A DNA stretch of 64,000 bases from a virus, in IMG/VR virus record IMGVR_UViG_3300036830_000392, positions 4,848 through 68,847 of that record. One strand, given 5' to 3'. Shown here piece by piece: positions 1,940 through 55,562 of the stretch. The notes under the pieces are model-generated. The model saw only the letters and a program-made list of their open reading frames with translations. It made no database searches and was not told the origin of the DNA. The stretch's first letter is position 1. The number at the start of each line of letters is the position of its first letter. The translations under genes and the position numbers were made by a program.

Positions 1940-1983
1940 AAAATGAAATCGGGCGCCCGCCCAGCATGCGGACGAGCGCCCGA
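1940..1983 (-). terminator. Intrinsic terminator after the capsid gene
   Basis: Stem TCGGGCGC (1949-1956) / GCGCCCGA (1976-1983) followed by TTTCATTTT on the minus strand. Confidence 0.55.
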
Positions 1984-1991
1984 GTCTCCAG
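1963..1991 (-). promoter_or_regulatory. Phage late-type promoter motif
   Basis: aaatCTGGAG-17-CATGCT. Confidence 0.65.
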
Positions 1992-2010
1992 ATTTCAGCG
2001 GGCGAGCTGC

Positions 2011-3051
2011 CTAGACCGCGTCCATGTAGTAGACGGTCGCCGGGCGGCGGATCTCCAGGCCGGCGTACCGGTACTCGCCCGGCACGTTAGTGGCCAGGTC
2101 GACCTCCTGCGGCGCCCGGAACATCAGCGGCATCGGCAGGTGCAGGACCATGTTGTCGTTCATCGGGTTGAAGAACACGACCCTCTTGGACGAGGAACCG
2201 CCCAGGATGGCCAGCTCGTCCGCGGACTGGATGTCCAGGCCGGGATAGATGCGCTTGATGAACTCCAGCACCGTGATGTCGCTGGCAGACGAGCGCGGGA
2301 TCAGCAGACGGCTGTACGACGAGATCGGCATAACGATCTTCGTCGGGAAATCGGTATCCTTGGTGGCGATCTTCACGTTGGTCAATCCGACCGTGATGTC
2401 GCTGATGATGGTGTCAGCCGTGGCCGCGTCCCACACCGCGCCGCTGGGGCGGTTGGCCGCCGTGACGGACGCGTTGTTGAACAGACCCGTGAAATTCGAG
2501 CCCGCTTCACCCTGGAGCGCGACGAAGTTCATGTGGCGCTGATACATCTCCATCGCGGTGAGCCGTCGGCCCTCGGGCAACGGGCGCTTGAAGAACGCCG
2601 ACGCGCGGAGGTCCTGGGTGGTGTACCCATACTTCACGCCGCCGTGAGCGATCGCGATGCTCTTCCGAGAGGAAGAGACGTCAGCCGTCGGCAGGTTGGT
2701 ACCCGCCGGCGAGACACGCTTTCCCATGCCGACCTGGTCGACGACCTCATACTCGACCGACTCTTTGCCGGGACCAGCCGCATAGCTGATCGTGTTGCCG
2801 ATGAGGTCGATGTACTTCTTCGGCGCATACTTGCGCGCGAAGAGGCCTTCTTCCTCGTAGGCCAACTGCGACACCGCGAAGGCGTGCGCCTCCTGAGCAT
2901 CGTTGGCGGAGGGCTTCCCGAAGTCGTCGCCCGCCCCGAAACCGAGGATGTGCGGGTGCGTCTTCAGGTAGTGGTCGAAGGCGTTGTAGCGATGATCGCT
3001 GACAGTCGCCTCCACCCACCTGTTCATCGCGTCTTTGGCTTTGATCTTCAT
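2011..3051 (-). CDS. Major capsid protein (DUF2184 / HK97 fold)
   Basis: 346 aa. YGYTTQDLRAS, TGLFNN and AGLEIRRPATVYYMD motifs. Follows the protease and decoration genes. Confidence 0.9.
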   Translation of the reverse strand: MKIKAKDAMNRWVEATVSDHRYNAFDHYLKTHPHILGFGAGDDFGKPSANDAQEAHAFAVSQLAYEEEGLFARKYAPKKYIDLIGNTISYAAGPGKESVEYEVVDQVGMGKRVSPAGTNLPTADVSSSRKSIAIAHGGVKYGYTTQDLRASAFFKRPLPEGRRLTAMEMYQRHMNFVALQGEAGSNFTGLFNNASVTAANRPSGAVWDAATADTIISDITVGLTNVKIATKDTDFPTKIVMPISSYSRLLIPRSSASDITVLEFIKRIYPGLDIQSADELAILGGSSSKRVVFFNPMNDNMVLHLPMPLMFRAPQEVDLATNVPGEYRYAGLEIRRPATVYYMDAV

Positions 3052-3102
3052 GGTCGATTCCTTGCGAGAGTTGTTGTTCAGAGCCTTGGGTGTCGCCTTC
3101 GC

Positions 3103-4890: not shown

Positions 4891-5825
4891 GCAGCCACCG
4901 CTTCCTGGCCGCCGCCTTCGATTTCATCGAGATCGAAGACAGGTATCGGCACGCACCTGCAGTTGATTGGGTAGCCAGGATTTGCCGGCTCCCCGTCGAC
5001 CATCGGCGGCGCGTCCCAGCGCTGGGTGGTGCCATCGAGCGCGGCATGCGATCGGCGCACGCGCTCATCATGTGCGGTCAACCATGTATAGCGTTCGATC
5101 CCAACCGACCGCTGCCGAACCTCGTTGAACGCGCTGTTGAGCTTGCTCGTCTGGTCGCGGGCGATCAGGCGAGCACGAGAATCGGTAACATCTCCGACGT
5201 GAGCGATGCGCTCCGCCAGCGATTCCCAGCGGATGCCTTGCTCCCAAGACGCCGAGATCTCCTCTTCGAGGCGCTGGAAGTACTGGCGGGGAATGCTGGT
5301 GATGAGATCGACGTTCGCCTGAACCGCCGCACGCAGCGCCGGCCCGATCCGTTCGTCGGCTCGGATCGTGGCCAGAAGGTCGACGCCCACCGACTGCCTG
5401 ATCGCCGCCGCCAGGCGCTGGTCGACCTCGCCCAGGTTCTTGCGGGCGACCAAGTCGGCAAGCCGCTTGGCGACGCCGCCGATATTGCCGAACTTCTCGG
5501 CGGTGCGCTGGAGCAAAGACGGCAAGCCGAGGCGGGTTTCGTCGGCGACGGCGAGTCGCCCTGCTTCATCGGCCAGCTGTTCGCTGGTCAGCCGCCGGAC
5601 TTCTTCGTCCCGAGACTCAACCCTCGGCCACGCAGAACGCAGCCCCTCCCCAACCTCCGCCCCGGCCTGTCTGAGTAGATCGACGATCCCGCCCAGCTCC
5701 GCGCGGTACCAAAGTTCGTTGCGGCGGCTGGCGCGCACAGGGCGCAACGTTCTCTCCCGCCTCTTTCGGAGTGGGTTCGCCCGCGGATGAGTCGCGGCAA
5801 GATGGCGAAGATGAACGAGCAACAC
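4887..5825 (-). CDS. Head morphogenesis protein (SPP1 gp7 / Mu gpF family)
   Basis: RARLIARDQTSKLN, YTWLTAHDERVRRSH and PGYPINCRC motifs. Confidence 0.92.
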   Translation of the reverse strand: MLLVHLRHLAATHPRANPLRKRRERTLRPVRASRRNELWYRAELGGIVDLLRQAGAEVGEGLRSAWPRVESRDEEVRRLTSEQLADEAGRLAVADETRLGLPSLLQRTAEKFGNIGGVAKRLADLVARKNLGEVDQRLAAAIRQSVGVDLLATIRADERIGPALRAAVQANVDLITSIPRQYFQRLEEEISASWEQGIRWESLAERIAHVGDVTDSRARLIARDQTSKLNSAFNEVRQRSVGIERYTWLTAHDERVRRSHAALDGTTQRWDAPPMVDGEPANPGYPINCRCVPIPVFDLDEIEGGGQEAVAA

Positions 5826-5833
5826 GCCTCTTC

Positions 5834-5912
5834 ACGATGGGGCAGGCGGATCGGATCCCAAGTTTTGGCCCGGGCGTTGAATCTGGAGAGAGGCCCATGG
5901 CGCACCCATTCT
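5834..5912. promoter_or_regulatory. Back-to-back late-type promoters for the head operon (-) and portal (+)
   Basis: Minus: aaaaCTTGGG(5862-5857)-17-CATCGT-8-GTG. Plus: gaatCTGGAG(5883-5888)-18-CATTCT-7-ATG. Confidence 0.7.
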
Positions 5913-5919
5913 GTGGGGC

Positions 5920-7428
5920 ATGGCGAACTGGCTCGGGCGGCTCTTTGGCGGCGGCTCAAAGGCTGCTGATTCGGTGGCCCTGGCGATCCCGGCGGGAACC
6001 GATCTTCAGAAAATGGTAACGGACGCCATTCGCGAAGTCGCAGCCGGCATGGACGGTGGACTCCAGAATCTTGCCGCCGGGCTCGGGACCTACCGGGACA
6101 AGAGCTACTACTCCGAGTACGGCGCGGTAACTCGCCTGAACGAAGAAGAGGTCACGCGGATGTACCGGGGCAGCTGGATTCCCCGGAAGATCGTGGACTG
6201 CGTGACCGAAGACATGACCAGAGAATGGGTCACGCTTTCGTTTGGAAGTGGGCAAAAGACAGACCAGGGCGCCGCCCGCGCCGTCGCAGAGACCGAGAAG
6301 AATTTGAACGTGAGGAGAGAGTTCGCCCACGGAATCAGATGGGGTCGCGCCTTCGGCGGCGGCGGGATGGTGATGCGCCTTCGGAATGACGGCGCCGTTC
6401 TTGAGCAGCCGTTAAATCCCGAGAGCATAAAGAAGGGCGATCTCGTCCTGGTTAAGACCTACGATCGCTTCAACCTGGTGGTCGACGGCACGGAGATCGA
6501 CAACGAAACCACGACGGCCGCGGGGAAAACTAACCCGAACTTTGGTCTCCCGAAGTTCTACACCGTCATTGACGTTGGCGGTGGGCAGGTCAACCGAATC
6601 CATGCCAGCCGGGTGATCCGTTTCGGCGGAGCGGTGACGCCGCGCCGAGCTTGGATCTCAAACGGCTACTGGGACGACAGCGTGCTGCTGGCCCCCATGC
6701 AGGCGATAAGGAATTACGACGCGGCGACTGGCGGCATCGCGAGCATGGTCTTTGAAACCAAGCTCGACATCATCAGCGTGGCCGGCCTGACGAACGCGCT
6801 CGCGACCAAAGACGGTGAAGCCAAAATCACCGCACGTTTCTTGGCCGGCGCCATCATGAAATCGCTGAACAAGATCCTGCTGATCGACAAGGACAAGGAG
6901 GCCTTCGCCCAGAAACAGATCACCTTCACCGGTCTCAAAGACGTGCTGGAGGGGATGATGAACGCCCTGAGCGGCGCTGCGGATGTCCCGTTGACGCGAT
7001 TGTTCGGGCAGTCCCCCGGCGGGATGAATGCCACCGGAGATAGCGACATGCGCAATCACTATGACCACATCAAGGGGCGGCAGACTTCAGACGTTCGCCC
7101 GCAGCTTTCGCAGTTTCATGAGGTCGAAATCCGATCGGCGCTGGGCACCATGCCGCCGGAGACCTCGTTCGAATTCAACCCGCTGTGGCAGCAGACCGCG
7201 AAGGAGAAGGCCGACACTGAAAAGGTGCGGGCCGACACGCGCAAGGTCTATTGGGACATCGGCGCGCTGAACGAGGGTGGAGTCGCCCGCGAGTTGCACG
7301 CGGATGGATCGATGAAGACCATGACCGACAGGGACGTGACGCTGGCGGAGGAGTTGGCGCAGCAGCCGGAGCCGGAGCCGCCGGCGTTCACGCCGGCAAA
7401 GACGAACGTTCCGCCCGCTGCCCGTTAG
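5920..7428 (+). CDS. Portal protein (DUF1073 family), inverted relative to neighbours
   Basis: MYRGSWIPRKIVD..EDMTREW, RIHASRVIRF, ADVPLTRLFGQSPGGMNATGDSD and FEFNPLWQ motifs. Confidence 0.93.
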   Translation: MANWLGRLFGGGSKAADSVALAIPAGTDLQKMVTDAIREVAAGMDGGLQNLAAGLGTYRDKSYYSEYGAVTRLNEEEVTRMYRGSWIPRKIVDCVTEDMTREWVTLSFGSGQKTDQGAARAVAETEKNLNVRREFAHGIRWGRAFGGGGMVMRLRNDGAVLEQPLNPESIKKGDLVLVKTYDRFNLVVDGTEIDNETTTAAGKTNPNFGLPKFYTVIDVGGGQVNRIHASRVIRFGGAVTPRRAWISNGYWDDSVLLAPMQAIRNYDAATGGIASMVFETKLDIISVAGLTNALATKDGEAKITARFLAGAIMKSLNKILLIDKDKEAFAQKQITFTGLKDVLEGMMNALSGAADVPLTRLFGQSPGGMNATGDSDMRNHYDHIKGRQTSDVRPQLSQFHEVEIRSALGTMPPETSFEFNPLWQQTAKEKADTEKVRADTRKVYWDIGALNEGGVARELHADGSMKTMTDRDVTLAEELAQQPEPEPPAFTPAKTNVPPAAR

Positions 7429-8792: not shown

Positions 8793-9546
8793 CGCCGTCC
8801 CCGCCGGGCCCGTTGGTTGCCGACCCGGGGCCCGTGTTGTTGTCGGGCATGTAGAGCACCACCGCCGGCGGCGCCGTGAGCACCTGCTGCATTCCGCCCG
8901 GCGCAATGCTCGACAGCAGGGCCTTCGACAGCGCGGCGTGGTCCTTGGCGGCCGTGGCCAGGCGGGCGGCGGCCGACGCCACCGCAAACGCGCTCACGTG
9001 CTCCTTCAGGATGGTGATGACGTTCCCCTTCTCGTCCCGGCGGGGCTGGCCGGTCTTCGGGTCCAGGTCGGGGACCCGGCGGAACGTCGAGAACGACGCG
9101 TGCGCCGCCGCCGTGGAAAGGCGCTCGGCCAAGCGGGTCAGCGCCTGGGTGGTGCTGGCCGCCGCCGACAGCTGGGCGCGGGCCGCCTCCTCCCACGAGC
9201 CCGCGATGATGGTGGCCACCACCTCGGCCGCTCGGACTTCTGCGTCGTTGACCACCTTCTGCACCGCCTCGGCGACCGCTTCGTCTGTGACCTCGCCGCG
9301 GTCCTTCAGCGCGGGGAGGTTCTTGTCGGGCCAGCCGATGCGCACCGCATGCCGCACCCGGTGGATGCTGGCCTTGACCAGTTTGGCCAGCCGGGCAGGG
9401 CTGCGAGCGCCCATCCGGTACTCCTTCAGCCAGCGGGCATACTCTTCGGGGGTTGGCGGTGTGAGGCCCTTGGTCGGGCTGGACTGATCTACCCCCTCGC
9501 CAGTTGGATCACCCGCTGGATCGCCGGGTGGATCGGGTTCTGCCAT
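8776..9546 (-). CDS. Putative terminase small subunit
   Basis: Directly upstream of and overlapping terL. HTH-like N-terminus, helical middle, C-terminal VLYMPDN. Start 9546 chosen because ATG 9558 overlaps the -10 box. Confidence 0.7.
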   Translation of the reverse strand: MAEPDPPGDPAGDPTGEGVDQSSPTKGLTPPTPEEYARWLKEYRMGARSPARLAKLVKASIHRVRHAVRIGWPDKNLPALKDRGEVTDEAVAEAVQKVVNDAEVRAAEVVATIIAGSWEEAARAQLSAAASTTQALTRLAERLSTAAAHASFSTFRRVPDLDPKTGQPRRDEKGNVITILKEHVSAFAVASAAARLATAAKDHAALSKALLSSIAPGGMQQVLTAPPAVVLYMPDNNTGPGSATNGPGGDGDASGS

Positions 9547-9556
9547 CGCATCACCC

Positions 9557-9585
9557 ATCGTCAGGTAACGCTTGGCGATCTCCAG
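9557..9585 (-). promoter_or_regulatory. Phage late-type promoter motif (terminase)
   Basis: caatCTGGAG-17-GACGAT-10-ATG. Confidence 0.7.
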
Positions 9586-9632
9586 ATTGGCGGGGTGCGA
9601 TCCAATCTTGGATCAGGCCGATGGAACCTGGA

Positions 9633-13901: not shown

Positions 13902-13977
13902 AGTCTCTGTGCGCGGGATCGACTCTCAAGAATCGGAGGGCCGCGTTCCTTGAGAGACGCAGCCAATCGGCGACCTT
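13902..13977. promoter_or_regulatory. Back-to-back late-type promoters
   Basis: Minus: gattCTTGAG(13930-13925)-17-GAGACT. Plus: gttcCTTGAG(13949-13954)-17-GACCTT-6-ATG. The -35 boxes form the inverted repeat CTCTCAAG/CTTGAGAG. Confidence 0.7.
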
Positions 13978-13983
13978 GGGCTC

Positions 13984-14361
13984 ATGAAAAAGCTGATCCT
14001 CCTGATCGTCATCGCTGGTTGCGTCGACGCCACCGGATGCACCCATGCGCCGCCGGTGGTCAACAATGTCGTGTCCGCCGTCATCGACTGCAGCCTGCCG
14101 AAGGTGCATGACCTGGCGCTCCAACTGATCCCAACCGTTGAAACGATCGTCGCCAAGCGCGGCGATGGCTGGGAACAGGACCTGACCGATCTCGTGAAGG
14201 CCGATCTGGAAGACGCGGTGGCGTGCGCGGTGCGCGCGGTGGCCGACGAGGCCTTCCACGCGGCGCAAGCGTCGCCATCGGACGCCCTGTCCGACGTCAA
14301 ATCCAAGCGAGCCACGGCCTGGATGACCCAGCGGGGCTACAAGTTCACCGACGGGCCATGA
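13984..14361 (+). CDS. Putative lipoprotein
   Basis: MKKLILLIVIAGC signal peptide and lipobox. Leaderless start. Confidence 0.7.
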   Translation: MKKLILLIVIAGCVDATGCTHAPPVVNNVVSAVIDCSLPKVHDLALQLIPTVETIVAKRGDGWEQDLTDLVKADLEDAVACAVRAVADEAFHAAQASPSDALSDVKSKRATAWMTQRGYKFTDGP

Positions 14362-15663: not shown

Positions 15664-16107
15664 TCAGCTCGCCGTATCCTGTTCCGGGTCCAGCTTGGCC
15701 GCGACGAGCGCATGGGCGGCGGCGATGACCGCCAGGGCCGGCTCGTCGAGGCCCTCGGCGTCATGGTTGATGGGGTTGCCGGGCGCGCCGTAGATGGCCC
15801 TCACCTTGGCCGGATCCTCGGTGATGATGAGGCGAAATAGCACCGCGGCGTCGGCAATTTTTCGGCCGCCGTAGACGGTGGGTGGCCGCTCGACGCCGAC
15901 GACCTCGCGGGCTGCGTCGACGGCCTTGGCCAGCGCGGCACGCTCGTCGTCAAGGTTATCCTGGATCGGCTTGCCGACCTCGAACGCGATCGAGTCGGCG
16001 TGGTCACCGATTCGATAGGTCACCAGGATTTGCTCGGTCGTCTGCCGCTCCCAGTCGATCGTGACGAAGAGCCGTTCTTGGTCATCCGAATGCGAAGCGC
16101 CGTCCAT
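15664..16107 (-). CDS. Hypothetical protein
   Basis: Natural composition. Leaderless after a degenerate late-type promoter. Confidence 0.6.
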   Translation of the reverse strand: MDGASHSDDQERLFVTIDWERQTTEQILVTYRIGDHADSIAFEVGKPIQDNLDDERAALAKAVDAAREVVGVERPPTVYGGRKIADAAVLFRLIITEDPAKVRAIYGAPGNPINHDAEGLDEPALAVIAAAHALVAAKLDPEQDTAS

Positions 16108-16115
16108 GGAGAAAC

Positions 16116-16144
16116 ACCATGAACGGCGCCGACTAGATCTGAAG
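16116..16144 (-). promoter_or_regulatory. Degenerate late-type promoter motif
   Basis: aaaaCTTCAG-17-CATGGT-8-ATG. Confidence 0.45.
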
Positions 16145-16158
16145 TTTTCGGGGTGCGG

Positions 16159-16392
16159 CTACTTGGCGCCGGCGTCGGCCGCGCACCAGTTCGTCCAGAC
16201 CTGCTTTTGCTCGTCGGTCGTGATCTCAGGCGGTGGTCCGCCATCGACAGCCGGGTGCGCGGAGCAGAAGCTGGCTTCCGAGTTGACCAGCTTGTTGTCG
16301 TCTGAACCGCACCCGGCGGCGATACCGGCGACCGCCGCCCCAGCCACTACCACGCGTAGGTGAGAACGAAGCTTTGAAAATCCGAGTTCCAT
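16159..16392 (-). CDS. Small lipoprotein
   Basis: Hydrophobic stretch with lipobox IAAGC-GSDD, and a DAG C-terminus. Confidence 0.6.
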   Translation of the reverse strand: MELGFSKLRSHLRVVVAGAAVAGIAAGCGSDDNKLVNSEASFCSAHPAVDGGPPPEITTDEQKQVWTNWCAADAGAK

Positions 16393-17477: not shown

Positions 17478-17512
17478 GGAAGCCTCCAATATTGGTGGTC
17501 GCATTCTAGGAC

Positions 17513-17707: not shown

Positions 17708-17982
17708 GGCCGGTCTCCCATTGCCTTCCGCGCCAGCGCGAGCGCCTTGCCGGCGATCTGCGTCGCCTCCAGGGCGAGCTTCTCGCAGCGCTCAGCGCGC
17801 CCATGCAGGTCGTGCACCTGGTTGATCAGGTCGAGGATCAGAACTTTCTGGGCCAGCACCACATCGACCATGCGCACCGGATCGGCGAGCAGCGCAACCG
17901 CCGCCTCGTCCACTTTGGTGGTGGGCTCGTCGTCCACCGGTGTCGGCACGCTAGTATCCTGATTCGTCTTCATCTGATTCAT
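17701..17982 (-). CDS. Hypothetical coiled-coil protein
   Basis: Continues the operon. Helical composition. Confidence 0.5.
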   Translation of the reverse strand: MNQMKTNQDTSVPTPVDDEPTTKVDEAAVALLADPVRMVDVVLAQKVLILDLINQVHDLHGRAERCEKLALEATQIAGKALALARKAMGDRPC

Positions 17983-19288
17983 CCACCACCCGCTTGTCCT
18001 CGGCGTCCTCATACAGATCGATGTCCTCGCCGATCAGCGCTTCCTTCAAAGACGCCAGGCCATCGATTTCAACCTGCCGCGCCCTCTCCATCGTGACGTT
18101 CATGAAGGTGCCCACGTCTTCCAATTGCGTCTGCCTCTCGCGGCGCTGCGCTCGATCGGCGACGTCCAGCGAGCATGTCTCTGGCATCGCGACGAGCGCA
18201 TCGACCACGTCCATGTGGGGGAAGTTGATCTTGATGCTGCGACCTTTCACGTCGAGGTAGAGGTGCTGTCGGCAGCCCACCCACGGGCAGGGCCTGGGTC
18301 CTTTGCGACAGTCGCCGCGCTGCAAAGGTCTGTCATCCCAGACCGGCAGGCGCATCAGCTCAACTTTCTCAGCCTTGTTCAGGCGCTTGGCCGCCGATGA
18401 TTTTGCCTTGGGGGCGCCGCGCTTCCGGCGACCGTAAAACCGCAGACGTTGCTGATCAGGCTCCTCGCATTGAGCCCGACGGCGGGGACGACGCTTGCGC
18501 CGATCAGTGTGCAGGTGAGGCAGGGCGCAATCGATCTCGCACAGCGCGATGGCTGGGACGGCTTCCGCGTCGGCGATGACGGCCTGAAACGGTCGCGGGC
18601 GAAACGGGGCAAGGAGACGATCGCGGCGCTTCACCCACGCGCGGCGCGTGCGCCACTGACGGCGCGCGATATGGGGGTTCTCGTCGTCACCGGGGATCGG
18701 CGGCTCAGCCATGCGGGCGAACCAAACGGCACGCTTTTTCTCGAGCCGACCCCGCGCCGTCGCTTCTCGCGGCTCCCATTTCGCATCGTGGCGCGCGGTC
18801 CAGCGCGTGCGCTCGGCCGCGCGGGCCGCGCGCAGCGCCTTCATCCGCTTGGTCCATTTGGCGGCCTGGCGAGCAAGCCACGCGGACTTCGCGGCCGCGG
18901 CGCCGGCCTTGTTCTTTCGGCGCCTACCTTTCGCCGCCCGTCGCCTTGCCCACTCCTCGCGTTCCCGCTGTCGCTTGGCGCGGAGACGTTCCTCCTTGGC
19001 GTTCCACTTCGCATCGTGGCGCGCGGTCCAGCGCGTGCGCTCGGCCGCGCGGGCCGCGGCTAGAACCAGGTCAGTCTCGGGTGGTGATTCCAGCCACGCC
19101 GCGCGATCGCGATCGTATTTCGCTCGCCTGGCCGCCTCCTGGAGGTCCCACCGGGCGGCCGCCTCGCTCTGCGAAAGATCGCCGTGGGTCTCAAGGATGG
19201 CGCCGGTCGGCAGGGCAAAGAACGTGGTGCCCCGATCGATCGGCGCGGGATGCACCAAGGTCTGGGCCGCTGGCGGCAGAAACTTCAC
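17951..19288 (-). CDS. Arg/Ala-rich protein with a C-terminal Cys-rich plus sigma70 region-4-like HTH (paralog B)
   Basis: RPLQRGDC..PRPCPWVGCRQHLYLDV...ETCSLDVAD...LEDVGTFMNVTMERARQVE. GTG at 19288 overlaps the upstream TGA. Confidence 0.75.
   Translation of the reverse strand: MKFLPPAAQTLVHPAPIDRGTTFFALPTGAILETHGDLSQSEAAARWDLQEAARRAKYDRDRAAWLESPPETDLVLAAARAAERTRWTARHDAKWNAKEERLRAKRQREREEWARRRAAKGRRRKNKAGAAAAKSAWLARQAAKWTKRMKALRAARAAERTRWTARHDAKWEPREATARGRLEKKRAVWFARMAEPPIPGDDENPHIARRQWRTRRAWVKRRDRLLAPFRPRPFQAVIADAEAVPAIALCEIDCALPHLHTDRRKRRPRRRAQCEEPDQQRLRFYGRRKRGAPKAKSSAAKRLNKAEKVELMRLPVWDDRPLQRGDCRKGPRPCPWVGCRQHLYLDVKGRSIKINFPHMDVVDALVAMPETCSLDVADRAQRRERQTQLEDVGTFMNVTMERARQVEIDGLASLKEALIGEDIDLYEDAEDKRVVDESDEDESGY
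18780..19058. repeat. Perfect 51-bp direct repeat (18780-18830 and 19008-19058)
   Basis: ttcgcatcgtggcgcgcggtccagcgcgtgcgctcggccgcgcgggccgcg occurs twice, within the duplicated peptide AARAAERTRWTARHDAKW. Confidence 0.9.
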
Positions 19289-20836: not shown

Positions 20837-21105
20837 AGCTGAGCCTTTCGCTTTCCCGCTGCATCGAGCGCTTCGACCACGCGGAGGTAATCACCGGGCT
20901 CGACAAATTCGGAAGTCCCGACCTCGACGGCGATCAGACTGCTGACCGGCATCTGCAGCGCACGCGCCGCGGCGCCCACCTGGATTCCGTGCCGATGGCG
21001 CGCGGCGCGTACCGCCACGCCGCGCACGCTGGCCGGAGAGACGGCGCGCACGGCGTAGTGGTACCGGCTGGGCGCGAAAGGAACCGCAGCACCTCTCGTA
21101 CTCAT
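20833..21105 (-). CDS. XRE-like HTH protein
   Basis: VRAARHRHGIQVGAAARALQMPVSSLIAVEVG. Confidence 0.6.
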   Translation of the reverse strand: MSTRGAAVPFAPSRYHYAVRAVSPASVRGVAVRAARHRHGIQVGAAARALQMPVSSLIAVEVGTSEFVEPGDYLRVVEALDAAGKRKAQL

Positions 21106-31151: not shown

Positions 31152-31188
31152 GTTCCCTACATGGTACAGATGTGGGGAACACGGTCAA
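31151..31188 (-). promoter_or_regulatory. sigma70-like promoter overlapped by a 31-bp imperfect palindrome
   Basis: TTGACC(31188-31183)-16-TACCAT. Palindrome tgttccctacat-N7-atgtggggaaca. Confidence 0.55.
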
Positions 31189-31578: not shown

Positions 31579-32982
31579 TTACAGGGCGACGGCGCCGCCC
31601 AGCGGGGAGTCGCGGTGCTCGGGCGGGTCTTCAACGTCGAGCGCGGCGGCCGACTCCTTCGCGCCCACCAGGCCACGCACCTCGATTTGGCGGATGCGCT
31701 CGCGGGTCAGGTTCAGCGTCTGTGCGACAGCCTCCAACGTGATCCCCCCGCGGTCGGCCACGTCCAGGGTGCAGCTTTCGCGCATCTGCCCGACCTCTGC
31801 GTAATTGAATTTGATCGCCCCGCTGTTCTCGTCGACGTCGAGGAATAGGTTGTGGCGACAGCTGATGAACGGGCACGGGCGGATGCCGTTATTCTGGCAG
31901 TCGCCTCTGGTGCGCGGGCGAGCTGGCAGATCGCCAGGCTCCTCGTCGGGCTGGATGACACGCAGCGCCCGGCGGATCTCGCGGCGCATCTTGGCCGGGC
32001 TCTCGGTGAAGGGGCGGAAATCGCCATCAAACGCCGATTTATGCGATTCCTCGACGTCGTTATGCGCCTCGGCCTCTATAAAATCCACGGGAGGCTCGTC
32101 GGCAACCAAGTCGGTCAGATCCGCCTCTTCGTCGCGGTCGACGAACACGGGCGGCGGCAGCGCCCGACGGTGGGACAGTTCGCCGGGGGCACGCTTCGGC
32201 TCACCGCCGAGCTGCGGGCACGTCTGGCGGCGGTGGCCGGGCTTGCGGCAGACCGAGCAGCAGCGCTGGCCAGGCGCGGCCTTCTCGTTTTCGGCCCTCA
32301 CTTGAGGCGGCAAAACGGGAACGGCTGGCGGCGCCGGAGCCGCCAGGCATGCGTCGTAGACGTCTTCCGGCGCGCCGGCGTCCGCCACCACCGGCGCCGC
32401 CACCAGGTCGACCAGTTCCGTCTCCACCGGCCGCAGCGGGCAGGTTTCCCGGCGGTGCCCAGGCTCGCGGCAGATGCCGCACCGGATCTGCGCCGGGCGC
32501 TTCGGCTTGATCGCCGGCGGTGGGACCCCGGGCCGGTCGGCCTTGAACTTGGCGCAGGTGACGATCTGATGGCCGGGTTCCTTGCACCACCCGCAGTGGC
32601 GGCCGCCCGGCGCCGGCTTCTCTGGACACTCTGGCATCCGATGGCCGAGGCGGCGGCAGCGCCGGCAGAGATCGGCGCGGGCGCGCATCGACGCTTCGCC
32701 GGGGTCGACGTCCGTCGGGCGAGCCGGACAGAGCCGCGCCACGTGACCGACCTCGCGGCACCATGCGCAGCGCTTCGGCTGGCGCTCGACCTCAGGACAG
32801 TTGCGCCGATCGTGGCCGGCGACACCGCAGCCGGTGCACGCGCGCGGGCTCGGCGGCAGCTCGACACGAAGGACTTCTGGATCCTCCGCGATCGTCGCTC
32901 CGGCCGACAGCCATGGGAACTTCTTGCGGAGCCATTCGATGCGACGGCTATCTGACGCAGGCGCGGCGCCATCGGCGGACAT
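31579..32982 (-). CDS. Six CCHC zinc knuckles fused to a Cys-rich plus sigma70 region-4-like HTH (paralog A)
   Basis: Six CX2CX4HX4C units. C-terminus [24 protein letters not shown]...[33 protein letters not shown]. Confidence 0.85.
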
Positions 32983-32990
32983 CGATCGGC

Positions 32991-33019
32991 ACCCTACGCG
33001 CGAGGGGAGCGGACTCCAG
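32991..33019 (-). promoter_or_regulatory. Phage late-type promoter motif upstream of the zinc-knuckle/sigma4 gene
   Basis: gaatCTGGAG-17-TAGGGT-8-ATG. Confidence 0.7.
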
Positions 33020-33037
33020 ATTCAGACGCCGGCAAGA

Positions 33038-43008: not shown

Positions 43009-43063
43009 ACGTTAACAGTCTGTTCACACTGCGGTCAACACAAAACGTGAACGCTTCGTTTAC
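43009..43063 (-). promoter_or_regulatory. sigma70-like promoter of the recombination operon with two operator boxes
   Basis: TTGACC-18-TAACGT. GTNNAC-N5-GTNNAC at 43011-43027 and 43047-43063. Confidence 0.65.
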
Positions 43064-46653: not shown

Positions 46654-46980
46654 CTACAGACCTCCAAAGGCGTCAGAGAAAAGGCCGTCGGTGATTCGCA
46701 CCAGGTCCTCGGCGTAAACGTCAGAGGCTTCGCCCTTCACCGTAAAGTCGAACTTGCGCAGGCGACCCACCTGGACGGTGTAGGTGTCGCTGGGGTCCAA
46801 GGTGACGATGATCTTGATGCCGCGGTTGCAGTTCATCATCAGGCCGTTCTCGGTGCCCAGCAGCTGCTTGACGCCCCAGCGGGCGCGGGCCCAGAAGTCG
46901 AGGGCGTTGATTTGGCCCAAGATGATGTTGGCGACGGAGGGCTCGGTCTCGGCGGCGGTCTCGGTGTTCGTCGTGTTCAT
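46654..46980 (-). CDS. Early hypothetical protein (leaderless)
   Basis: MNTTNTE...IVTLDPSDTYTV...DVY. ATG 7 nt after TATACT. The longer track ORF runs through the promoter region. Confidence 0.7.
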   Translation of the reverse strand: MNTTNTETAAETEPSVANIILGQINALDFWARARWGVKQLLGTENGLMMNCNRGIKIIVTLDPSDTYTVQVGRLRKFDFTVKGEASDVYAEDLVRITDGLFSDAFGGL

Positions 46981-46987
46981 GAGAATC

Positions 46988-47102
46988 AGTATATTCATTA
47001 TGATTGCGAGTGCAAGCATAAAAAAGCGAACGCTGCGATTTATTCTGTTCTGGCCATACGCGCATGTTTCGCTTGACTTTGCAGGTGCTCCCACCGCAGG
47101 CT
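46988..47102. promoter_or_regulatory. Divergent early sigma70-like promoters
   Basis: Minus: TTGCAC-16-TATACT-7-ATG. Plus: TTGACT-18-CAGGCT-7-ATG. AT-rich spacer. Confidence 0.75.
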
Positions 47103-47109
47103 TGCGTCG

Positions 47110-47472
47110 ATGGCAAAGAAGGCTGAAGAGGACGCGGTGGCCGTGACGGTTCGGCTCGCCCCCGCTGTTTACAAGGACTTGGCCGACCGTGTTCGAATAG
47201 AGGAACGAACACAGAACGCTGTTGTGAGCCGGGCGATCCGGCTGTATGCCGCGGCTGCTGAGCGATCGATCGCGATCGACGAAGACTTCCTCGCCAATCT
47301 CAAGGCTTCTGCGGAGCGGACAGAATGCACGTGCACGCCGCCGAGCAAGTCGGCGCACTTCAATGGCTGCCCACGAATCCCGGTGATTCTGGCGATCATC
47401 GCGCTCGAACAATTCCTGCCGCGAGAAGATCGAAATCTACAGGGATTGGTGATCAAGAAGGGCGTGCGCTGA
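47110..47472 (+). CDS. Ribbon-helix-helix (Arc-like) regulator
   Basis: AVTVRLAPAVYKDLADRVRIEERTQNAVVSRAIRLY. Confidence 0.7.
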   Translation: MAKKAEEDAVAVTVRLAPAVYKDLADRVRIEERTQNAVVSRAIRLYAAAAERSIAIDEDFLANLKASAERTECTCTPPSKSAHFNGCPRIPVILAIIALEQFLPREDRNLQGLVIKKGVR

Positions 47473-48438: not shown

Positions 48439-48442
48439 CGAA

Positions 48443-48709
48443 ATGGGCAAACGCCACAACAACCGCACCGGCCGCGAGGCGAAGCGGCGGCGCCGCAGGC
48501 ATGAACGGCGGACGGCTTGGTCTTTTGAACGCGCGGGCCGGACGACGAGCGCCGCGCTGATCGACTGGCCGCCCTTAACGTTCGCTGGATTGCAGGAGGC
48601 GATCGACGAGATCGATCGTCTCGCTCGCAGCCATGAGGATGGGTACGTGTTTCGCTGTTACGGGCTGAGTTTCATCCCGCCCGCCGCACGCTACCTCATC
48701 AAAATCTAG
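48443..48709 (+). CDS. Basic hypothetical protein
   Basis: MGKRHNNR start. Confidence 0.45.
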   Translation: MGKRHNNRTGREAKRRRRRHERRTAWSFERAGRTTSAALIDWPPLTFAGLQEAIDEIDRLARSHEDGYVFRCYGLSFIPPAARYLIKI

Positions 48710-48735
48710 AGCCCGCCCCCGCCCCGCCGCACTCT
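48706..48735 (+). promoter_or_regulatory. Phage late-type promoter motif (endolysin)
   Basis: aaatCTAGAG-18-CACTCT-6-ATG. Confidence 0.7.
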
Positions 48736-48741
48736 GCGGGC

Positions 48742-49251
48742 ATGCCCCGCGACACGGACTTCGTCAGCAAGCTCCTCGACATCGCCGCCTGTGAGGTTGG
48801 CGTCCGCGAGACCGCGCCGAACCGCGGCCAGCGCGTCGACGAGTACCACCGATACGCCGGGCGCGACCCCGCCGCCGCCGACAGCTGGTGCGCCCAGTTC
48901 GTCGGCTTTTGTTCCGGTCACGCCGCCGAGGCGCTCGACCTACCGAACCCGCTTCCGAAGGCGTCGAGCGTATGGGGCCTCTGGCAGCGTGCGCCGCTGT
49001 CGATGCGCGTGGCCGACCCGCGGCCGGGCGACGTCTTCCTCATCGACCACGGTGACGGCAAGGGCCACTGCGGGATCGTCACGGGGCAAGCGTTCGGCGA
49101 GGGCATGCTGACGACGTGCGAAGGCAACACCTCGGTGACCGGCTCGCGCAACGGGGACGGCGTCTACAACCGGACGCGCGGGATCGCCGAGATCACGATC
49201 GGGTTCCTGCGGCCGGCGCTGGCGTTCGTGGATGGGCCGGCGGTGGCGTAG
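48742..49251 (+). CDS. CHAP-domain endolysin
   Basis: EVGVRE..NRG, WCAQFV, PGDVF, GHCGIV and EGNT motifs. Confidence 0.9.
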   Translation: MPRDTDFVSKLLDIAACEVGVRETAPNRGQRVDEYHRYAGRDPAAADSWCAQFVGFCSGHAAEALDLPNPLPKASSVWGLWQRAPLSMRVADPRPGDVFLIDHGDGKGHCGIVTGQAFGEGMLTTCEGNTSVTGSRNGDGVYNRTRGIAEITIGFLRPALAFVDGPAVA

Positions 49252-49388: not shown

Positions 49389-49883
49389 TTACAGCAACGC
49401 CGCCCGCGGCACCGCGCCCGCAGTCCGCAGTCGCGCCGCCACCAGTTCCCGCCGCGCGACGTGCGCGGCCAGCCCAATTGCATCGCACTGATCTTCCCCT
49501 GCCGTCACCCCGTACGTCGCCCGCACCCACAGCGCCGCGGCCTTCTTCGTTCCGCCCTTGGTGAGCATGCCCAGGACGCCTCGCTGCCAGATGTTCGGCA
49601 TCACGATTTCGGTGGGCACGCCGCGCACGGCGAAGGCGAGTTGCCAGGCGCCGACGATGCGGCTGAGCACCTTCATCACGTTCGGGTTGGCCTTCTTCCC
49701 GCGCATGACGAAGTTGTCCTCGATCACCACCAGGTCAGGCCGAGCGCCCGCGCAGGCGGAACGCGCAAAGGCGTCGAGGCGCAGCAGATCGCCGGCTTCG
49801 ACGGTGCCGTGGGCGATCAAGCGCTCGCCGTCGAGGCGGGCCCAGCCTGAGCACGTCGCGCTATCAATGGCCAGTAGCCTCAC
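49389..49883 (-). CDS. RuvC-like Holliday junction resolvase
   Basis: LLAID...GWA, VVIED and DQCDAIGLA motifs. Confidence 0.85.
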   Translation of the reverse strand: MRLLAIDSATCSGWARLDGERLIAHGTVEAGDLLRLDAFARSACAGARPDLVVIEDNFVMRGKKANPNVMKVLSRIVGAWQLAFAVRGVPTEIVMPNIWQRGVLGMLTKGGTKKAAALWVRATYGVTAGEDQCDAIGLAAHVARRELVAARLRTAGAVPRAALL

Positions 49884-50857: not shown

Positions 50858-50859
50858 GG

Positions 50860-51150
50860 TTACTTCCTCCGCTGCATCAGGAGTTGCTTGAGGTCGGTCT
50901 TGATCGAGCCGACGTCGTCGCGCAGGCCCTTGACGTTCTCCTGCGTGAGCGACTGGCCAATCCGAATCTCGACGATGTCGCTCTGGGCCTTCTTGAACTC
51001 CGCCGGGTCGGGCGAGCGCGCCGCCCACCAGATGCCGCCGCCGATGACACTGGCGATGGCCAGGATCGGGCCGATGATCGAGAACCACGGCGTCGGGGGA
51101 CGCAGGTATCGACTGATCTCCTGCTCGGAGAGTTCGTCGAGACGCCTCAT
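50860..51150 (-). CDS. Single-TM coiled-coil membrane protein (possibly lysis-related)
   Basis: WFSIIGPILAIASVIGGGIWW followed by a coiled coil. Confidence 0.6.
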   Translation of the reverse strand: MRRLDELSEQEISRYLRPPTPWFSIIGPILAIASVIGGGIWWAARSPDPAEFKKAQSDIVEIRIGQSLTQENVKGLRDDVGSIKTDLKQLLMQRRK

Positions 51151-51266
51151 TACGCCGGCGCCTTCTCCGGTTCGGGCTCGGCCTGCGACAGGGCCGGCTT
51201 CGCCCCGCGACGCATCTCGCGCACCTTTCGGCGTCGCTCCTTGCGTGCGCGCTTCTTTCCGCTCAT
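51150..51266 (-). CDS. 38-aa basic leaderless peptide
   Basis: MSGKKRARKERRRKVREMRRGAKPALSQAEPEPEKAPA. 6 nt after the -10 box. TAATG-coupled to the next gene. Confidence 0.55.
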   Translation of the reverse strand: MSGKKRARKERRRKVREMRRGAKPALSQAEPEPEKAPA

Positions 51267-51272
51267 GAGCCA

Positions 51273-51301
51273 ATCCTAGACGTCGGAGGGACGGCCTCCA
51301 G
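51273..51301 (-). promoter_or_regulatory. Phage late-type promoter motif
   Basis: gattCTGGAG-17-TAGGAT-6-ATG. Confidence 0.7.
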
Positions 51302-51304
51302 AAT

Positions 51305-51793
51305 CTAGGGCGTCGCGTCCTCGGCGGCCGGCGCCTCGATGGTCTTCACGGCGGCCTTGGACTGGGCCTCGGCGTCCTGGACGGACGGCGCCTTGTACTG
51401 TTTGTCCTGCATCCGGTCGCGGACCTCGCCGATGTAGTCGATCCAGCCGCCTGGAACTTCGCCATTTTCCGTGGTCTTCACGAAATACTCGATGACGTCG
51501 GCGCTGGTCTCGTACTCGACAAGCTCCGCCGAGAACTGCGCGATCCGGGTCGGCTTCGCCGCTCGGTTCTTCTCCTCGGCTTCGGCTTCGGCTTTGGCTT
51601 CCGATTCGTCGATCATTCGGGACATTGCACGCAGCGCGAAGTTCTTGAAGAGCCGTCGGTGGCTAGCCTGATCGCCGCCCTTCGGTCGGACGAAGTTCGA
51701 GAAGAACCACAGTATGGCCGTGCGCTCTTGCTCGCTGGCCTCAATCCATTTGCCGACCGATTCGGACCTCGCTCGCTGCTTGGATTCACTCAT
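51305..51793 (-). CDS. Hypothetical protein (possible fibre chaperone)
   Basis: Directly downstream of the large fibre gene. Leaderless. Confidence 0.6.
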   Translation of the reverse strand: MSESKQRARSESVGKWIEASEQERTAILWFFSNFVRPKGGDQASHRRLFKNFALRAMSRMIDESEAKAEAEAEEKNRAAKPTRIAQFSAELVEYETSADVIEYFVKTTENGEVPGGWIDYIGEVRDRMQDKQYKAPSVQDAEAQSKAAVKTIEAPAAEDATP

Positions 51794-51799
51794 GAGGCG

Positions 51800-51828
51800 A
51801 TAGTGCGGCGCGGATCTAGATCCTCAAG
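51800..51828 (-). promoter_or_regulatory. Phage late-type promoter motif
   Basis: ttttCTTGAG-17-CACTAT-6-ATG. Confidence 0.7.
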
Positions 51829-51840
51829 AAAAGTGTCTGC

Positions 51841-54800: not shown

Positions 54801-55521
54801 AGATCGTCTGGTCAAACAGGCCGTCGAGGAAGTTGAACTGTCCGCCAAGGAATGCGTTTCCCCTGAACGAGACGGCGCCCCCTGCCCAGATCGCCCAGCT
54901 GTCACTGGTATCGTCCCAGCCAGCCAGAGACGGCTCGCCTTCAATCCACAGCGTTGCTACCGGGCCTTGCTGGCCGTTGGGCGTGAGGTCGTTATCGCCT
55001 TCAACGTTGTTGAAGGTCGGCGAGTAAATCGAAACGTATGCCACATGATCGGCCGTGTTGTAATTCTGGTCGGCGGTGAAATCGACGGACCCGTGGATTT
55101 TGAAGAAGTCCGTCGTGACATCGGTCTGCGCGAAGGACTGCGTCAGGTCGACGTCGACCATCGTCGGAGCGACCGCGTCGGCATTGAAGCCCCAGCCACT
55201 GGCGTTGAAGCGCATCGGCCCTTTGGCGGCGTCCTTCGATGCGTCGATGGTCAGGCCGTCGCCGGGGTTGAGGCCACCCGACCAGGTGTTGCCGCCGGCG
55301 TGGCCGGTGATGTAGTCGCCGTGGACGGTATGGCCGTCGATGTCGAGGGTCAGACCGTCGGTGAACGTGTATGAGGCGCCGGCGCCCGGCGGGATTGCGG
55401 CGATGGCGGCCTCGAGATCGTCGAGGCGGACGAGATCATCGGGCGCGATGGCGTGACGTGAGCCGTACGCGCGCCGGTTCTTGAAGTTCCAATCCCGCTC
55501 GGCGTTGTCGCGCAGACTCAT
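51841..55521 (-). CDS. Large tail/side fibre protein
   Basis: 1226 aa, Thr/Gly/Ser-rich. TAGTGLTGGGDLSANRT fibre motif and an internal duplication. Confidence 0.8.
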   Translation of the reverse strand: MSLRDNAERDWNFKNRRAYGSRHAIAPDDLVRLDDLEAAIAAIPPGAGASYTFTDGLTLDIDGHTVHGDYITGHAGGNTWSGGLNPGDGLTIDASKDAAKGPMRFNASGWGFNADAVAPTMVDVDLTQSFAQTDVTTDFFKIHGSVDFTADQNYNTADHVAYVSIYSPTFNNVEGDNDLTPNGQQGPVATLWIEGEPSLAGWDDTSDSWAIWAGGAVSFRGNAFLGGQFNFLDGLFDQTIYKSGTGDFFLQNINGGNTFLGTNGGTGAVSVNAAGALGVNVLPSGAHRFQVHAAQSVAFSSSATLDAVYFDPSTTTLTGGTGTISTAAGFNQVVFAAPTINATSTTINNAATVTILGAPSGTATITNPYALNVQAGTTRLAGTVIISTLTGMLKATSGTVSVGTGGTDYVAPTTTLTAGTGLTGGGDLSANRTFNVGANADGSIAVNADDIQVGVLATDAQHGNRGNGSLHTTATTSTAGFLAAADKSTLANSKFFVGNSTNAPASAQNLGALASGILKQTVSGGVSTISVATGGTDFENPLTFSQGVTRASNAVTGDYITGKAGGQVWTSGTSASDPLTIQTFATSPTGAITLKAAQIFVPAGNFSTAPGIEFTGSTGAGFAYQNASGTDLLRVVVNESTLLYFQSDGIHMNNGALIDYGQGSSTKGVGIGGYASGGPYLDVVGTTATTAQGFSVFNTRTDGSNYERYTIDWTTTANTVKVGAQAAGTGTVRAVSYVGASHTFGNTVVIQSLTGMLKATSGTVSVGTAGTDYTGIITLTAGTGLTGGGDTSASRTFNVIGNADGSILANPDDIQVGVLATDAQHGNRGGGGIHAAATTGTAGFLSSADKSTLANSKFFVGNSTNAPASSQNLGALTTGILKQTVSAGVSTIATATGGTDYEFPLTFSIGLTRATNTITANITTGVSGGQTATGGTVSGNALTLRSNTSNDGKILLGSTSNGFSESTGQFWLGTTTPASTATIAINVSQNSFTEVLNTNANTGGAAGAWFVAGLNANTDSGKTMVMAMLGTNWTTSGLLGPQVGLIEHAPSIASNMVISANSTGDMVFATTTSRTERARVTTDGYWTHKLWGTAITTSPSNRYGFELQQAATTNISNGVTGTIWATAAITQGTFQMSSGSATITSLASLYIDGAPLNGGGGLTTTNRYSIFCDFGLARFDGDGTQVFETPHFTPAPTSFSNSNEYIPVKVTGVGLKYILLQDLSFS
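52718..54373 (-). repeat. Diverged internal duplication of about 185 codons (approx. 53807-54373 and 52718-53280)
   Basis: LTGMLKATSGTVSVG...DDIQVGVLATDAQHGNRG...DKSTLANSKFFVGNSTNAPAS occurs twice. Confidence 0.85.
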
Positions 55522-55533
55522 AGCCCCAGATCG

Positions 55534-55562
55534 AGGCTACAGGCTGGGCGAACGGTCTCTAG
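55534..55562 (-). promoter_or_regulatory. Phage late-type promoter motif (large fibre)
   Basis: ctttCTAGAG-17-TAGCCT-12-ATG. Confidence 0.7.

Follow-up and report, generated by a model that had tools for sequence, protein, structure and literature searches.

A sharply defined box in the -35 region precedes the late genes of an uncultured temperate tailed phage and points to a phage-specific promoter class

In the genome of an uncultured temperate tailed phage, one and the same short promoter-like element stands ahead of all units with head, packaging, appendage, fibre or lysis genes; it occurs on both strands and supports the earlier proposal, made from the sequence alone, that the late genes form a dispersed regulon. 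One regulator-like gene also carries the element. Its anatomy is a box WWTCTnGAGa, a spacer of 17-18 nt, a minimal -10 element nAnnnT and then a G-rich stretch. The analysed window is a 64-kb stretch of a 68.8-kb genome, and the likely host phylum is Myxococcota, as the host looks myxobacterial rather than alphaproteobacterial. From these data we infer that the sites act as promoters, where and when transcription starts, and which protein reads the box. The best explanation, which we hold to be somewhat probable, is that the sites form a late promoter class that is specific to the phage and has sigma-70-type geometry: the host's primary sigma factor, within its RNA polymerase, would open the -10 element, a phage protein would be needed to use the box, and the late genes, as about 12 separate units distributed over the two strands, would be turned on at the same time. 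The best candidate for the reader of the box is one of two paralogs, A and B, with a zinc-bound, sigma-region-4-like domain.

The sequence-only reading had listed 12 sites under the pattern WWYCTDGAG-N17/18-NANNNT. All 12 sequences are present at the positions and on the strands given below, and their geometry was recomputed. The full pattern occurs 11 times in 64 kb compared with about 0.24 expected (17-nt spacer, 8 matches against 0.14 expected; 18-nt spacer, 3 against 0.10), and none of the 100 shuffles of the 64-kb sequence that served as background for pattern counts reached 8 or 3 matches, respectively. Ten of these 11 matches are listed sites and the eleventh lies at 810-842 on the minus strand. 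The 9-mer WWYCTDGAG alone was found 15 times (4.53 expected), and NANNNT stands at 17/18 nt beside 11 of the 15, which is support independent of how the 12 sites had been selected. The looser box WWWCTNGAG was weakly enriched (13 against 6.28 expected; 2 of 100 shuffles reach 13). The proposed consensus holds for 10 of the 12 sites, but those at 5862 (AAACTTGGG) and 16144 (AAACTTCAG) fall outside it. The A and T of the -10 element are present in 12/12 by construction, because the sites had been chosen on those bases.

The motif was also recovered by two unbiased checks. TCTGGAG is the top enriched 7-mer in non-coding DNA (6 vs 4 counts, Fisher 1.4e-5, uncorrected), and de novo expectation maximization (EM) over 41 upstream 80-mers, with all 2887 10-mers as seeds, converged on AATCTGGAGA or ATCTGAAGAC. 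Placement was measured against our own annotation, whose gene calls rest on codon and GC3 signals rather than a standard gene finder. Boxes lie 36-52 nt before called starts in 7 of 16 cases genome-wide, compared with 17 of 1074 for controls (477 permuted hexamers of the same composition). These counts and checks establish the motif and its placement. The sites and associated features, each written as box, spacer, -10 element, distance to the start codon and start, are as follows.

1963..1994, minus strand: P1991, box AATCTGGAG (1986-1994), 17 nt, CATGCT (1963-1968), then a 45-nt leader with AAGGAG and ATG 1917; neck, tail and baseplate operon
1949..1983, minus strand: terminator-like hairpin of 15 pairs, 11 of them G-C, followed by TTTCATTTT
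5823..5865, minus strand: P5862, AAACTTGGG-17-CATCGT-8-GTG 5825, off consensus; operon of Mu-F-like, scaffold, cement and major capsid genes
5880..5922, plus strand: P5883, AATCTGGAG-18-CATTCT-7-ATG 5920; portal
9544..9588, minus strand: P9585, AATCTGGAG-17-GACGAT-10-ATG 9546; 260-aa protein, then large terminase
13902..13933, minus strand: P13930, ATTCTTGAG-17-GAGACT, then a 57-nt leader with AAGGAG and ATG 13844; appendage cluster
13946..13986, plus strand: P13949, TTCCTTGAG-17-GACCTT-6-ATG 13984
16105..16147, minus strand: P16144, AAACTTCAG-17-CATGGT-8-ATG 16107, off consensus
32980..33022, minus strand: P33019, AATCTGGAG-17-TAGGGT-8-ATG 32982; before paralog A
48703..48744, plus strand: P48706, AATCTAGAG-18-CACTCT-6-ATG 48742; CHAP endolysin
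51264..51304, minus strand: P51301, ATTCTGGAG-17-TAGGAT-6-ATG 51266
51150..51266, minus strand: very basic 38-aa ORF, opened by the leaderless ATG 51266
51791..51831, minus strand: P51828, TTTCTTGAG-17-CACTAT-6-ATG 51793; 162-aa protein
55519..55565, minus strand: P55562, TTTCTAGAG-17-TAGCCT-12-ATG 55521; 1226-aa fibre-like protein
58723..58765, minus strand: possible 13th site, AATCTTCTG-17-CAATCT-8-ATG 58725, score 8.0
810..842, minus strand: extra full-pattern match, ATCCTTGAG-18-GATCGT, 18 nt before TTG 791

The WWT prefix of the box is kept in 11-12 of the 12 sites, the first base of the -10 element is T in only three (T at -12 is mostly absent), and G follows the -10 hexamer in 8, 7 and 6 of the 12. 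GATC was seen near the box in five of the 12 sites, with about 1.7 expected, which is suggestive only.

The description of the late genes as mostly leaderless agrees with 10 of the 12 sites, where a start codon follows the -10 element by 6-12 nt (GTG after P5862), but P1991 and P13930 have leaders. At these ten sites the predicted transcription start falls at or next to the start codon, so their mRNAs would be leaderless. A ribosome-binding 4-mer at -18..-5 is absent from nine of them and present in 48 of 83 other genes; the sole hit among the ten, at 51266, is the -10 element TAGGAT itself. The -10 element of P9585 is overlapped by a further ATG, at 9558, that is in frame.

Some individual sites are less certain. 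The terminator-like hairpin at 1949..1983 lies directly 3' of the major capsid gene (stop 2011), and the "-10" of P1991 forms the loop of this 15-pair structure; because of this overlap, P1991 may be chance plus a terminator. The site at 58723..58765, before a gene for a 400-aa protein and after the baseplate genes, is a weak possibility and could be chance, and the match at 810..842, inside the end of a gene, is either an internal promoter or chance. P51301 had been assigned to a holin/RuvC unit. The unit does continue to a RuvC-like gene (49389-49883), but its first start opens only the 38-aa ORF. The stop of this ORF overlaps the start, ATG 51150, of a protein of 96 aa, which on visual inspection looks membrane-spanning.

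Units of the early type had been said to carry a different -35 element, and this was borne out for the lysogeny and recombination units, with two clear examples only, both with TTGACC.

31161..31188, minus strand: canonical-type promoter of the lysogeny region, TTGACC-16-TACCAT-9-ATG 31151, leaderless too
43009..43038, minus strand: canonical-type -35 element TTGACC with TAACGT before the YqaJ-type recombination operon, with a leader containing AAGGAG

The first of these, TTGACC-16-TACCAT-9-ATG, serves as an internal calibrator since its geometry is the same as that of the late sites, and gene 31151 likewise has no ribosome-binding 4-mer at -18..-5. An E. coli-style promoter scan of three stretches returned 0, 1 and 1 canonical promoters, and shuffles gave as many.

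Calling the late box a non-canonical -35 element was an overstatement. Shifting the register by one base gives TnGAGA, which matches TTGACA at 3-5 of 6 positions, with T-35 in 12, G-33 in 11 and A-32 in 11 of the 12 sites and -34 free. In this hexamer register the spacer is 16 or 17 nt at all 12 sites, in place of the 17 or 18 nt counted originally, and the consistent departures from TTGACA are G for C at -31 (12/12) and the free -34. With so many positions matched, the host holoenzyme alone might use the box. This raises a rival explanation that we regard as rather unlikely, namely that the primary sigma holoenzyme reads TnGAGA and nAnnnT unaided, the shared letters reflecting common descent or a preference for moderately weak promoters, and late timing coming from something else, such as repressor release, genome copy number or DNA modification. 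The conserved T-35, G-33 and A-32 with a 16-17-nt spacer are in its favour, as is the G-rich stretch after the -10 element, a kind of feature that helps primary sigma factors on weak promoters. It is also consistent with the failure to find a phage sigma factor: Sigma70_r2 had no match in the 81 phage proteins scanned or, at E up to 0.5, in 20 candidate proteins, and tblastn of a FliA-like module (residues 215-420 of P0243, described below) against the 68.8-kb genome gave nothing below E 1. However, TTGACC and TAnnnT are what the phage itself has in its lysogeny and recombination promoters, and G-31 at all 12 sites together with the WWT prefix at 11-12 exceeds what mere weakness of a promoter would require.

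The pattern is specific to the phage. Five Myxococcota genomes contain 0.09-0.74 matches per 64 kb compared with 11 here, which makes it 15-120 times denser in the phage; 107 other loci (1.15 Mb) contain 27 matches. This rarity argues against unaided reading by the primary sigma factor, although the consensus of the actual host may differ from that of the five genomes. It also counts against the reading that a host alternative sigma factor, for example one for stress or development, is exploited for late expression, which we judge to be quite improbable. The likely host phylum is rich in alternative sigma factors, and the box is asymmetric and single-copy with fixed spacing, as in sigma-type recognition. 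Yet the box does not resemble the consensus sequences known for ECF (GAAC-type), sigma-28 and sigma-54 factors, the sigma-54 GG is missing in six of the 12 sites, and what the -10 element retains is just the A and T characteristic of group 1-2 sigma factors. A sigma-54 reading was rejected because the GG is not conserved. Control by CtrA or GcrA/GANTC was also rejected, as GANTC occurs in some sites only and the host does not look alphaproteobacterial.

Relatives for comparison were scarce. DNA and protein searches of a phage collection found no close phage (best capsid match, 40%), the portal has relatives at only 35% and 26% in IMG/VR, and a search of genome contigs with this single protein query returned no match. 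The portal matched 8 of 401 sampled Myxococcota genomes with a best identity of 31%, and thus no close prophage exists among those searched. One locus, L028, encodes a portal that is 80% identical over residues 1-248. L028 keeps both divergent head promoters. Five other phage records had no pattern match. Those five carry homologs of paralog A, which says nothing about paralog B. The L028 promoters are as follows.

L028 counterpart of P5862: AAATTTGGG-17-CAGCGT-8-GTG
L028 counterpart of P5883: TTTCTGTAG-18-GACGGT-6-ATG

In both, the box, spacer length, -10 element and start are kept and the spacer letters have diverged. The portal box, CTGTAG, has T where 11 of the 12 sites have G, and the other box begins with TTT; letters that seem invariant in our phage thus do vary in the single relative at hand. 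The conserved position of the box in L028 weighs against a third rival, in which the 9-mer is an operator for a phage repressor or architectural protein and merely overlaps unrelated weak promoters. Several other helix-turn-helix proteins are encoded as possible binding proteins: a DnaA-C-type protein lies at 27910-28425, and HTH_31 is matched weakly at 20833-21264 and at 27276-27590. However, the box has no dyad or direct repeat, unlike most operators, and stands at a fixed 17-18 nt from the -10 element and, at ten sites, at a fixed distance from the start codon. We consider an operator very unlikely, slightly more so than a host alternative sigma factor.

Under the preferred explanation, that of a phage-specific late promoter class, the candidate readers are the two paralogs.

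31579..32982, minus strand: paralog A (P0001, 467 aa), six CCHC zinc knuckles and a C-terminal Cys4 domain
17951..19288, minus strand: paralog B (P0389), Arg-rich N-terminal part and a C-terminal domain as in A

The C-terminal domain of A contains a sigma-4.2-like helix-turn-helix that aligns to sigma-A/RpoS region 4.2, including TRERIRQIE. It matches Pfam PF04545 (sigma region 4) with 27.2 bits (cut-off 24.1) over profile positions 20-45 only, and PF27939 is listed among its precomputed Pfam matches. The coding signal of B begins at about 19288. B is 42% identical to A over 106 aa (E 4e-20), and its match to Pfam Sigma70_r4 is under the cut-off (E 0.0066, 16.4 bits). The sigma-region-4-like protein had no match in the phage collection, and an IMG/VR search with the N-terminal part of A and the C-terminal part of B found none either. 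An initial model of this C-terminal domain could not be used (pLDDT 53.6); in a second (pLDDT 81) the Cys4 part precedes the helix-turn-helix. Foldseek with the second model found no match at E up to 0.001, its weak top rows being mostly sigma region 4, and a wide fold search found nothing at Z 5 or above. The domain belongs to a family with 4028 cluster representatives at E up to 1e-10, and myxobacterial names stand on 60 of the best 80 genome loci; no description of the family was found in literature searches, which were not aimed at it by name. P0243, a relative with 52% identity, has a FliA/WhiG-type sigma factor inserted between the knuckles and the C-terminal domain, which ties this type of protein to transcription initiation. 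Conversely, cellular members precede purH-purD in 3 of the 4 Myxococcota loci examined, so the family need not act on promoters.

Of the two, paralog B is favoured as the candidate reader. Its recognition helix, VTMERARQVE, has Met at the position of sigma-70 R584. In published work, R584 is the residue that reads -31, and the preference is altered or loosened by R584A or R584C (PMC2613000, PMC12262734). Position -31 is also the one changed from C to G in the late box, and B is favoured because Met replaces the reader of the very position that the box changes. At the equivalent position, 143 of the 145 family representatives carry Arg and not one carries Met, a rarity measured on a biased set, since the 145 are those nearest to A. 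B lies in an earlier operon, and A stands under a late box of its own, from which it would rise together with the late genes.

The two paralogs might also act jointly, a proposal that we consider tentative and rather improbable as a whole. In it, B would read the late box as a stand-alone, zinc-stabilised sigma region 4 with Met for Arg, handing host polymerase to about 12 leaderless promoters. A, which keeps the helix of a primary sigma factor, would be made late and, fused to six nucleic-acid-binding zinc knuckles, would block canonical TTGAC boxes and so shut down early or host transcription.

Known systems offer partial parallels. At T4 middle promoters, MotA and AsiA carry out "sigma appropriation", in which a host-type -10 element is combined with a phage-specific box that replaces the -35 element. 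The likeness lies in the many dispersed units and in a phage protein that, as proposed here, takes over recognition of the -35 region. Unlike in T4, the box here occupies the usual -35 register and partly resembles TTGACA, sigma region 4 is the model for the candidate reader itself, whose domain is like it, and the targets are late rather than middle genes. No Pfam or PHROG match to the MotA or AsiA families was found in the scanned phage proteins, where distant homologs are possible, and none to the RinA, ArpU or Ogr families. The sites of Ogr and Mu C are dyads further upstream. [quoted passage not shown] In contrast to RinA/ArpU, we find about 12 promoters on both strands, and the candidate readers are encoded at 17.9-19.3 kb and 31.6-33.0 kb, away from the terminase at 7.4-9.6 kb.

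T4 gp55 and the SPO1 sigmas are phage-encoded sigma factors (PMC3152322). Their regulons share with ours a short phage-specific promoter repeated before virion genes, here often abutting the start codon; unlike them, no sigma region 2 was found here and the late box is not sigma-28-like. For the Caulobacter gene transfer agent, a study describes a degenerate -35 element and an activator, GafY/GafZ, that works through sigma-70 domains 3-4; GafY depends on IHF and has its binding site far upstream, GafZ has a palindromic element that lies between -35 and -10, and control includes anti-termination of one long cluster (PMC11150451). The likeness is in the phage-derived late-type genes, and our phage has a separate DnaA-C-type helix-turn-helix protein. 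The gp39 protein of Thermus phage P23-45 reportedly binds sigma region 4 and the flap and favours promoters without a -35 element, unlike the present case, in which a conserved -35-region box is present. This phage protein re-aims the host holoenzyme from host to phage promoters (PMC3950348).

Even if the hypothesis on the reader fails, a clean map of this uncultured phage's late transcription units remains. Phage-specific late promoters are common and the strategy is familiar among phages; the sequence is new and the candidate reader unusual. What is distinctive is a sharply defined -35-region box within normal sigma-70 geometry, yet with no sigma factor of the phage's own found. Also distinctive is that the sole clear difference between the recognition helices of the paralogs matches the sole consistent difference between the late and canonical -35 elements, a match that reduces to one residue and one base pair. 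If the joint action of A and B proves true, it would be sigma appropriation by mimicry rather than remodelling, and a domain family that in Myxococcota is a core gene beside purH would gain its first known function.

The record is 68,847 bases long, and the window covers its bases 4848-68847. Its initial 161 bases are repeated at its end (63840-64000 of the window), so by its sequence the record represents a genome of about 68.7 kb that is complete or circularly permuted. This direct overlap of the termini corresponds to a closed circle or a short terminal repeat, and the neck-tail-baseplate operon spans the junction. The G+C content of the window is 60-71%. Genes and starts were called from codon usage and GC3, and products were assigned through Pfam and PHROGs scans.

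Principal genes and features
Head and packaging: portal, Mu-F-like protein, DUF2213, cement protein, major capsid, large terminase
Tail: neck, tail, E217/Pam3-type baseplate
Lysis and fibre: 1226-aa fibre-like protein, CHAP endolysin, RuvC-like resolvase
Early and lysogeny: integrase, DnaB and DnaC-like replication, YqaJ-type recombination module, several DNA methylases
31579-32982, minus: protein A, zinc-knuckle protein with a sigma-4-like C-terminal domain
17951-19288, minus: protein B, second copy of that domain
16347-17504, minus: 385-aa protein encoded between early and late regions, with a serine protease domain of trypsin type (Pfam Trypsin, 37 bits)
27910-28425, minus: 171-aa DnaA domain-IV helix-turn-helix protein (Pfam, 53.3 bits), near the integrase
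47110-47472, plus: 120-aa ORF in the AT-rich divergent region 46980-47110

The phage is temperate and myovirus-like, and no close cultured relative was found. The DnaA-type protein is possibly another regulator or an origin-binding protein, and the 120-aa ORF looks by eye like a small ribbon-helix-helix-type regulator, possibly in an immunity switch.

The sequence-only reading had placed the pattern WWYCTDGAG-N17/18-NANNNT at twelve sites before mostly leaderless late genes. The twelve quoted sequences all read as written; ten fit the consensus, whereas sites 5862 (AAACTTGGG) and 16144 (AAACTTCAG) do not. The full pattern occurs 8 times with a 17-nt spacer and 3 times with an 18-nt spacer, where shuffled sequence would give 0.14 and 0.10; ten of these matches are the claimed sites and one extra lies at 810-842 on the minus strand. 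By itself the 9-mer box WWYCTDGAG has 15 matches against 4.5 expected, 11 of which carry NANNNT at the right distance (about 1 expected from base composition), and a looser version of the box is only weakly enriched. Three further checks were independent of the original choice of sites. The most enriched 7-mer in non-coding DNA is TCTGGAG, followed by AATCTGG. Expectation maximization seeded with every 10-mer over 41 upstream regions returned AATCTGGAGA or a near variant from most of the 12 best seeds, so that unbiased discovery recovered the motif. Genome-wide, 7 of 16 boxes lie 36-52 nt upstream of an annotated start (9 if the starts at 9546 and 51266 are used), compared with 17 of 1074 in a control set of 477 permuted, composition-matched hexamers. 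The pattern is rare elsewhere, with 27 matches in 107 fetched loci (1.15 Mb), 16-105 per 5-13 Mb in five Myxococcota genomes (0.09-0.74 per 64 kb) and zero in five IMG/VR phage records.

One related contig, L028 (metagenome, 2569 nt), encodes a portal that is 80% identical over residues 1-248. Its divergent intergenic region carries TTTCTGTAG-18-GACGGT-6-ATG before the portal and AAATTTGGG-17-CAGCGT-8-GTG in the opposite direction, keeping positions, spacer lengths and start codons while the spacer letters have diverged, which argues for function of the divergent head promoters, in a comparison that rests on this one short relative. Two box letters differ there, with T for a G found in 11 of 12 sites in this phage and T for the "invariant" C.

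Aligned over the twelve sites, the box reads W (12), W (12), T (9), C (12), T (12), N, G (11), A (11), G (12), A (8), and the -10 element is C (6), G (3) or T (3), then A, three free bases and T, with G at the next three positions in 8, 7 and 6 sites. Leaderless starts are predicted for ten sites, where a start codon lies 6-12 nt past the -10 (GTG after 5862; after 51301 an ATG that begins a basic ORF of 38 aa with coupling to the gene behind it), and not for 1991 and 13930, which have leaders of 45 and 57 nt with AAGGAG. A ribosome-binding 4-mer at -18 to -5 is absent from nine close-start sites and from the canonical leaderless gene at 31151, and the only one among close-start sites, at 51266, is the -10 TAGGAT itself; 48 of 83 other genes have one. 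At 1991 the "-10" coincides with the loop of a strong hairpin that resembles a terminator and lies directly 3' of the capsid gene; either transcription starts within this hairpin and so escapes termination, or the site is no promoter. A weak thirteenth candidate precedes ATG 58725.

Across the whole genome TCTAGA is confined to non-coding DNA (3 palindromic sites, or 6 counts, vs 0 in coding DNA), and some copies overlap late boxes (48706, 55562) or come just after them (16144, 51828). At five of the twelve sites (5862, 9585, 13930, 16144, 51828; about 1.7 expected) a GATC stands no more than 14 nt past the box. Phage genes include those for a Dam-type methylase (19743-20552), a C5 methylase (25432-27279), a DUF4942 protein and a Mom-like protein (28670-29131).

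Early units had been said to show TTGAC/TTGCA-type -35 boxes. Two clear examples were found, and only these: TTGACC-16-TACCAT in the lysogeny region, followed after 9 nt by ATG 31151, and TTGACC with TAACGT at the recombination operon. The phage thus uses canonical boxes elsewhere, and the leaderless case at 31151 calibrates the geometry of the late sites. Shifted by one base, the late box reads T-n-G-A-G-A with a spacer of 16-17 nt; relative to TTGACA it keeps T-35, G-33 and A-32, leaves -34 free and changes C to G at -31. Because these three bases are retained, "non-canonical" was too strong a term, and from its letters the late box looks like a specific variant of the sigma-70 -35 element with a WWTC prefix.

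No sigma region 2 was found among the phage-encoded proteins. Protein A combines six CCHC knuckles with a C-terminal domain that has four invariant cysteines. The helix-turn-helix of this domain can be aligned with primary-sigma region 4.2 and retains an intact recognition helix (TRERIRQIE); fold searches with the domain were uninformative. The knuckles (CX2CX4HX4C, residues ~48-260) have LIN-28 and retroviral nucleocapsid knuckles as best PDB sequence matches, and the N-terminal part is common to only two other proteins among 5.8 billion searched. Protein B, found by tblastn with a relative, shares 42% identity with A across 106 residues (E 4e-20), and its recognition helix is TMERARQVE. Its N-terminal part is Arg/Ala-rich, with a near-exact internal repeat, AAERTRWTARHDAKW, twice at residues ~120-215. 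The Arg missing from B, replaced by Met, is the equivalent of sigma-70 R584; among the 145 representatives nearest to A, 143 have Arg at this position and none has Met. According to two reports, R584 makes contact with the template-strand G of position -31, where the substitutions R584A and R584C alter or relax specificity (PMC2613000, PMC12262734). Position -31 is also where the late box departs from the canonical one, a correlation and not a demonstration. The gene for A is preceded by a late box and that for B, which overlaps a transglycosylase stop codon, is part of an upstream operon, so it is plausible that B would be made first and A afterwards. In P0243, a metagenome protein 52% identical to A, the zinc knuckles are separated from the C-terminal zinc/sigma-4-like domain by an inserted, complete FliA/WhiG-type sigma (184.8 bits; cut-off 189.6), which links proteins of this type to transcription initiation.

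The domain family is very large (603 matches in one search, 4028 representatives at E <= 1e-10 in another) and occurs in phages and, above all, Myxococcota; the best 80 genome loci comprise 60 myxobacterial names, 11 labelled delta-proteobacterial and 9 other labels. This distribution hints at a myxobacterial host and is not proof of one. A cellular homolog of ~165-235 aa lies directly upstream of purH-purD, outside any prophage context, in three of four Myxococcota genomes examined (Nannocystis, L180; Myxococcus xanthus, L125; Anaeromyxobacter, L158). It looks like a core gene in Myxococcota. A MerR-type gene lies upstream of the homolog in two loci.

T4 middle promoters combine a phage box with a host -10, and the late sites follow the same logic. 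They also resemble late promoters that depend on an activator, for example RinA, a protein noted to be similar to sigma region 4 in its C-terminal half (PMC3152322), and, only loosely, the GafYZ system (PMC11150451). No MotA, AsiA, RinA, ArpU or Ogr family protein is among the Pfam/PHROGs matches of the phage proteins scanned. Late promoter boxes are of a familiar kind; what differs here is that they come without a phage sigma and with candidate readers that carry region 4 only.
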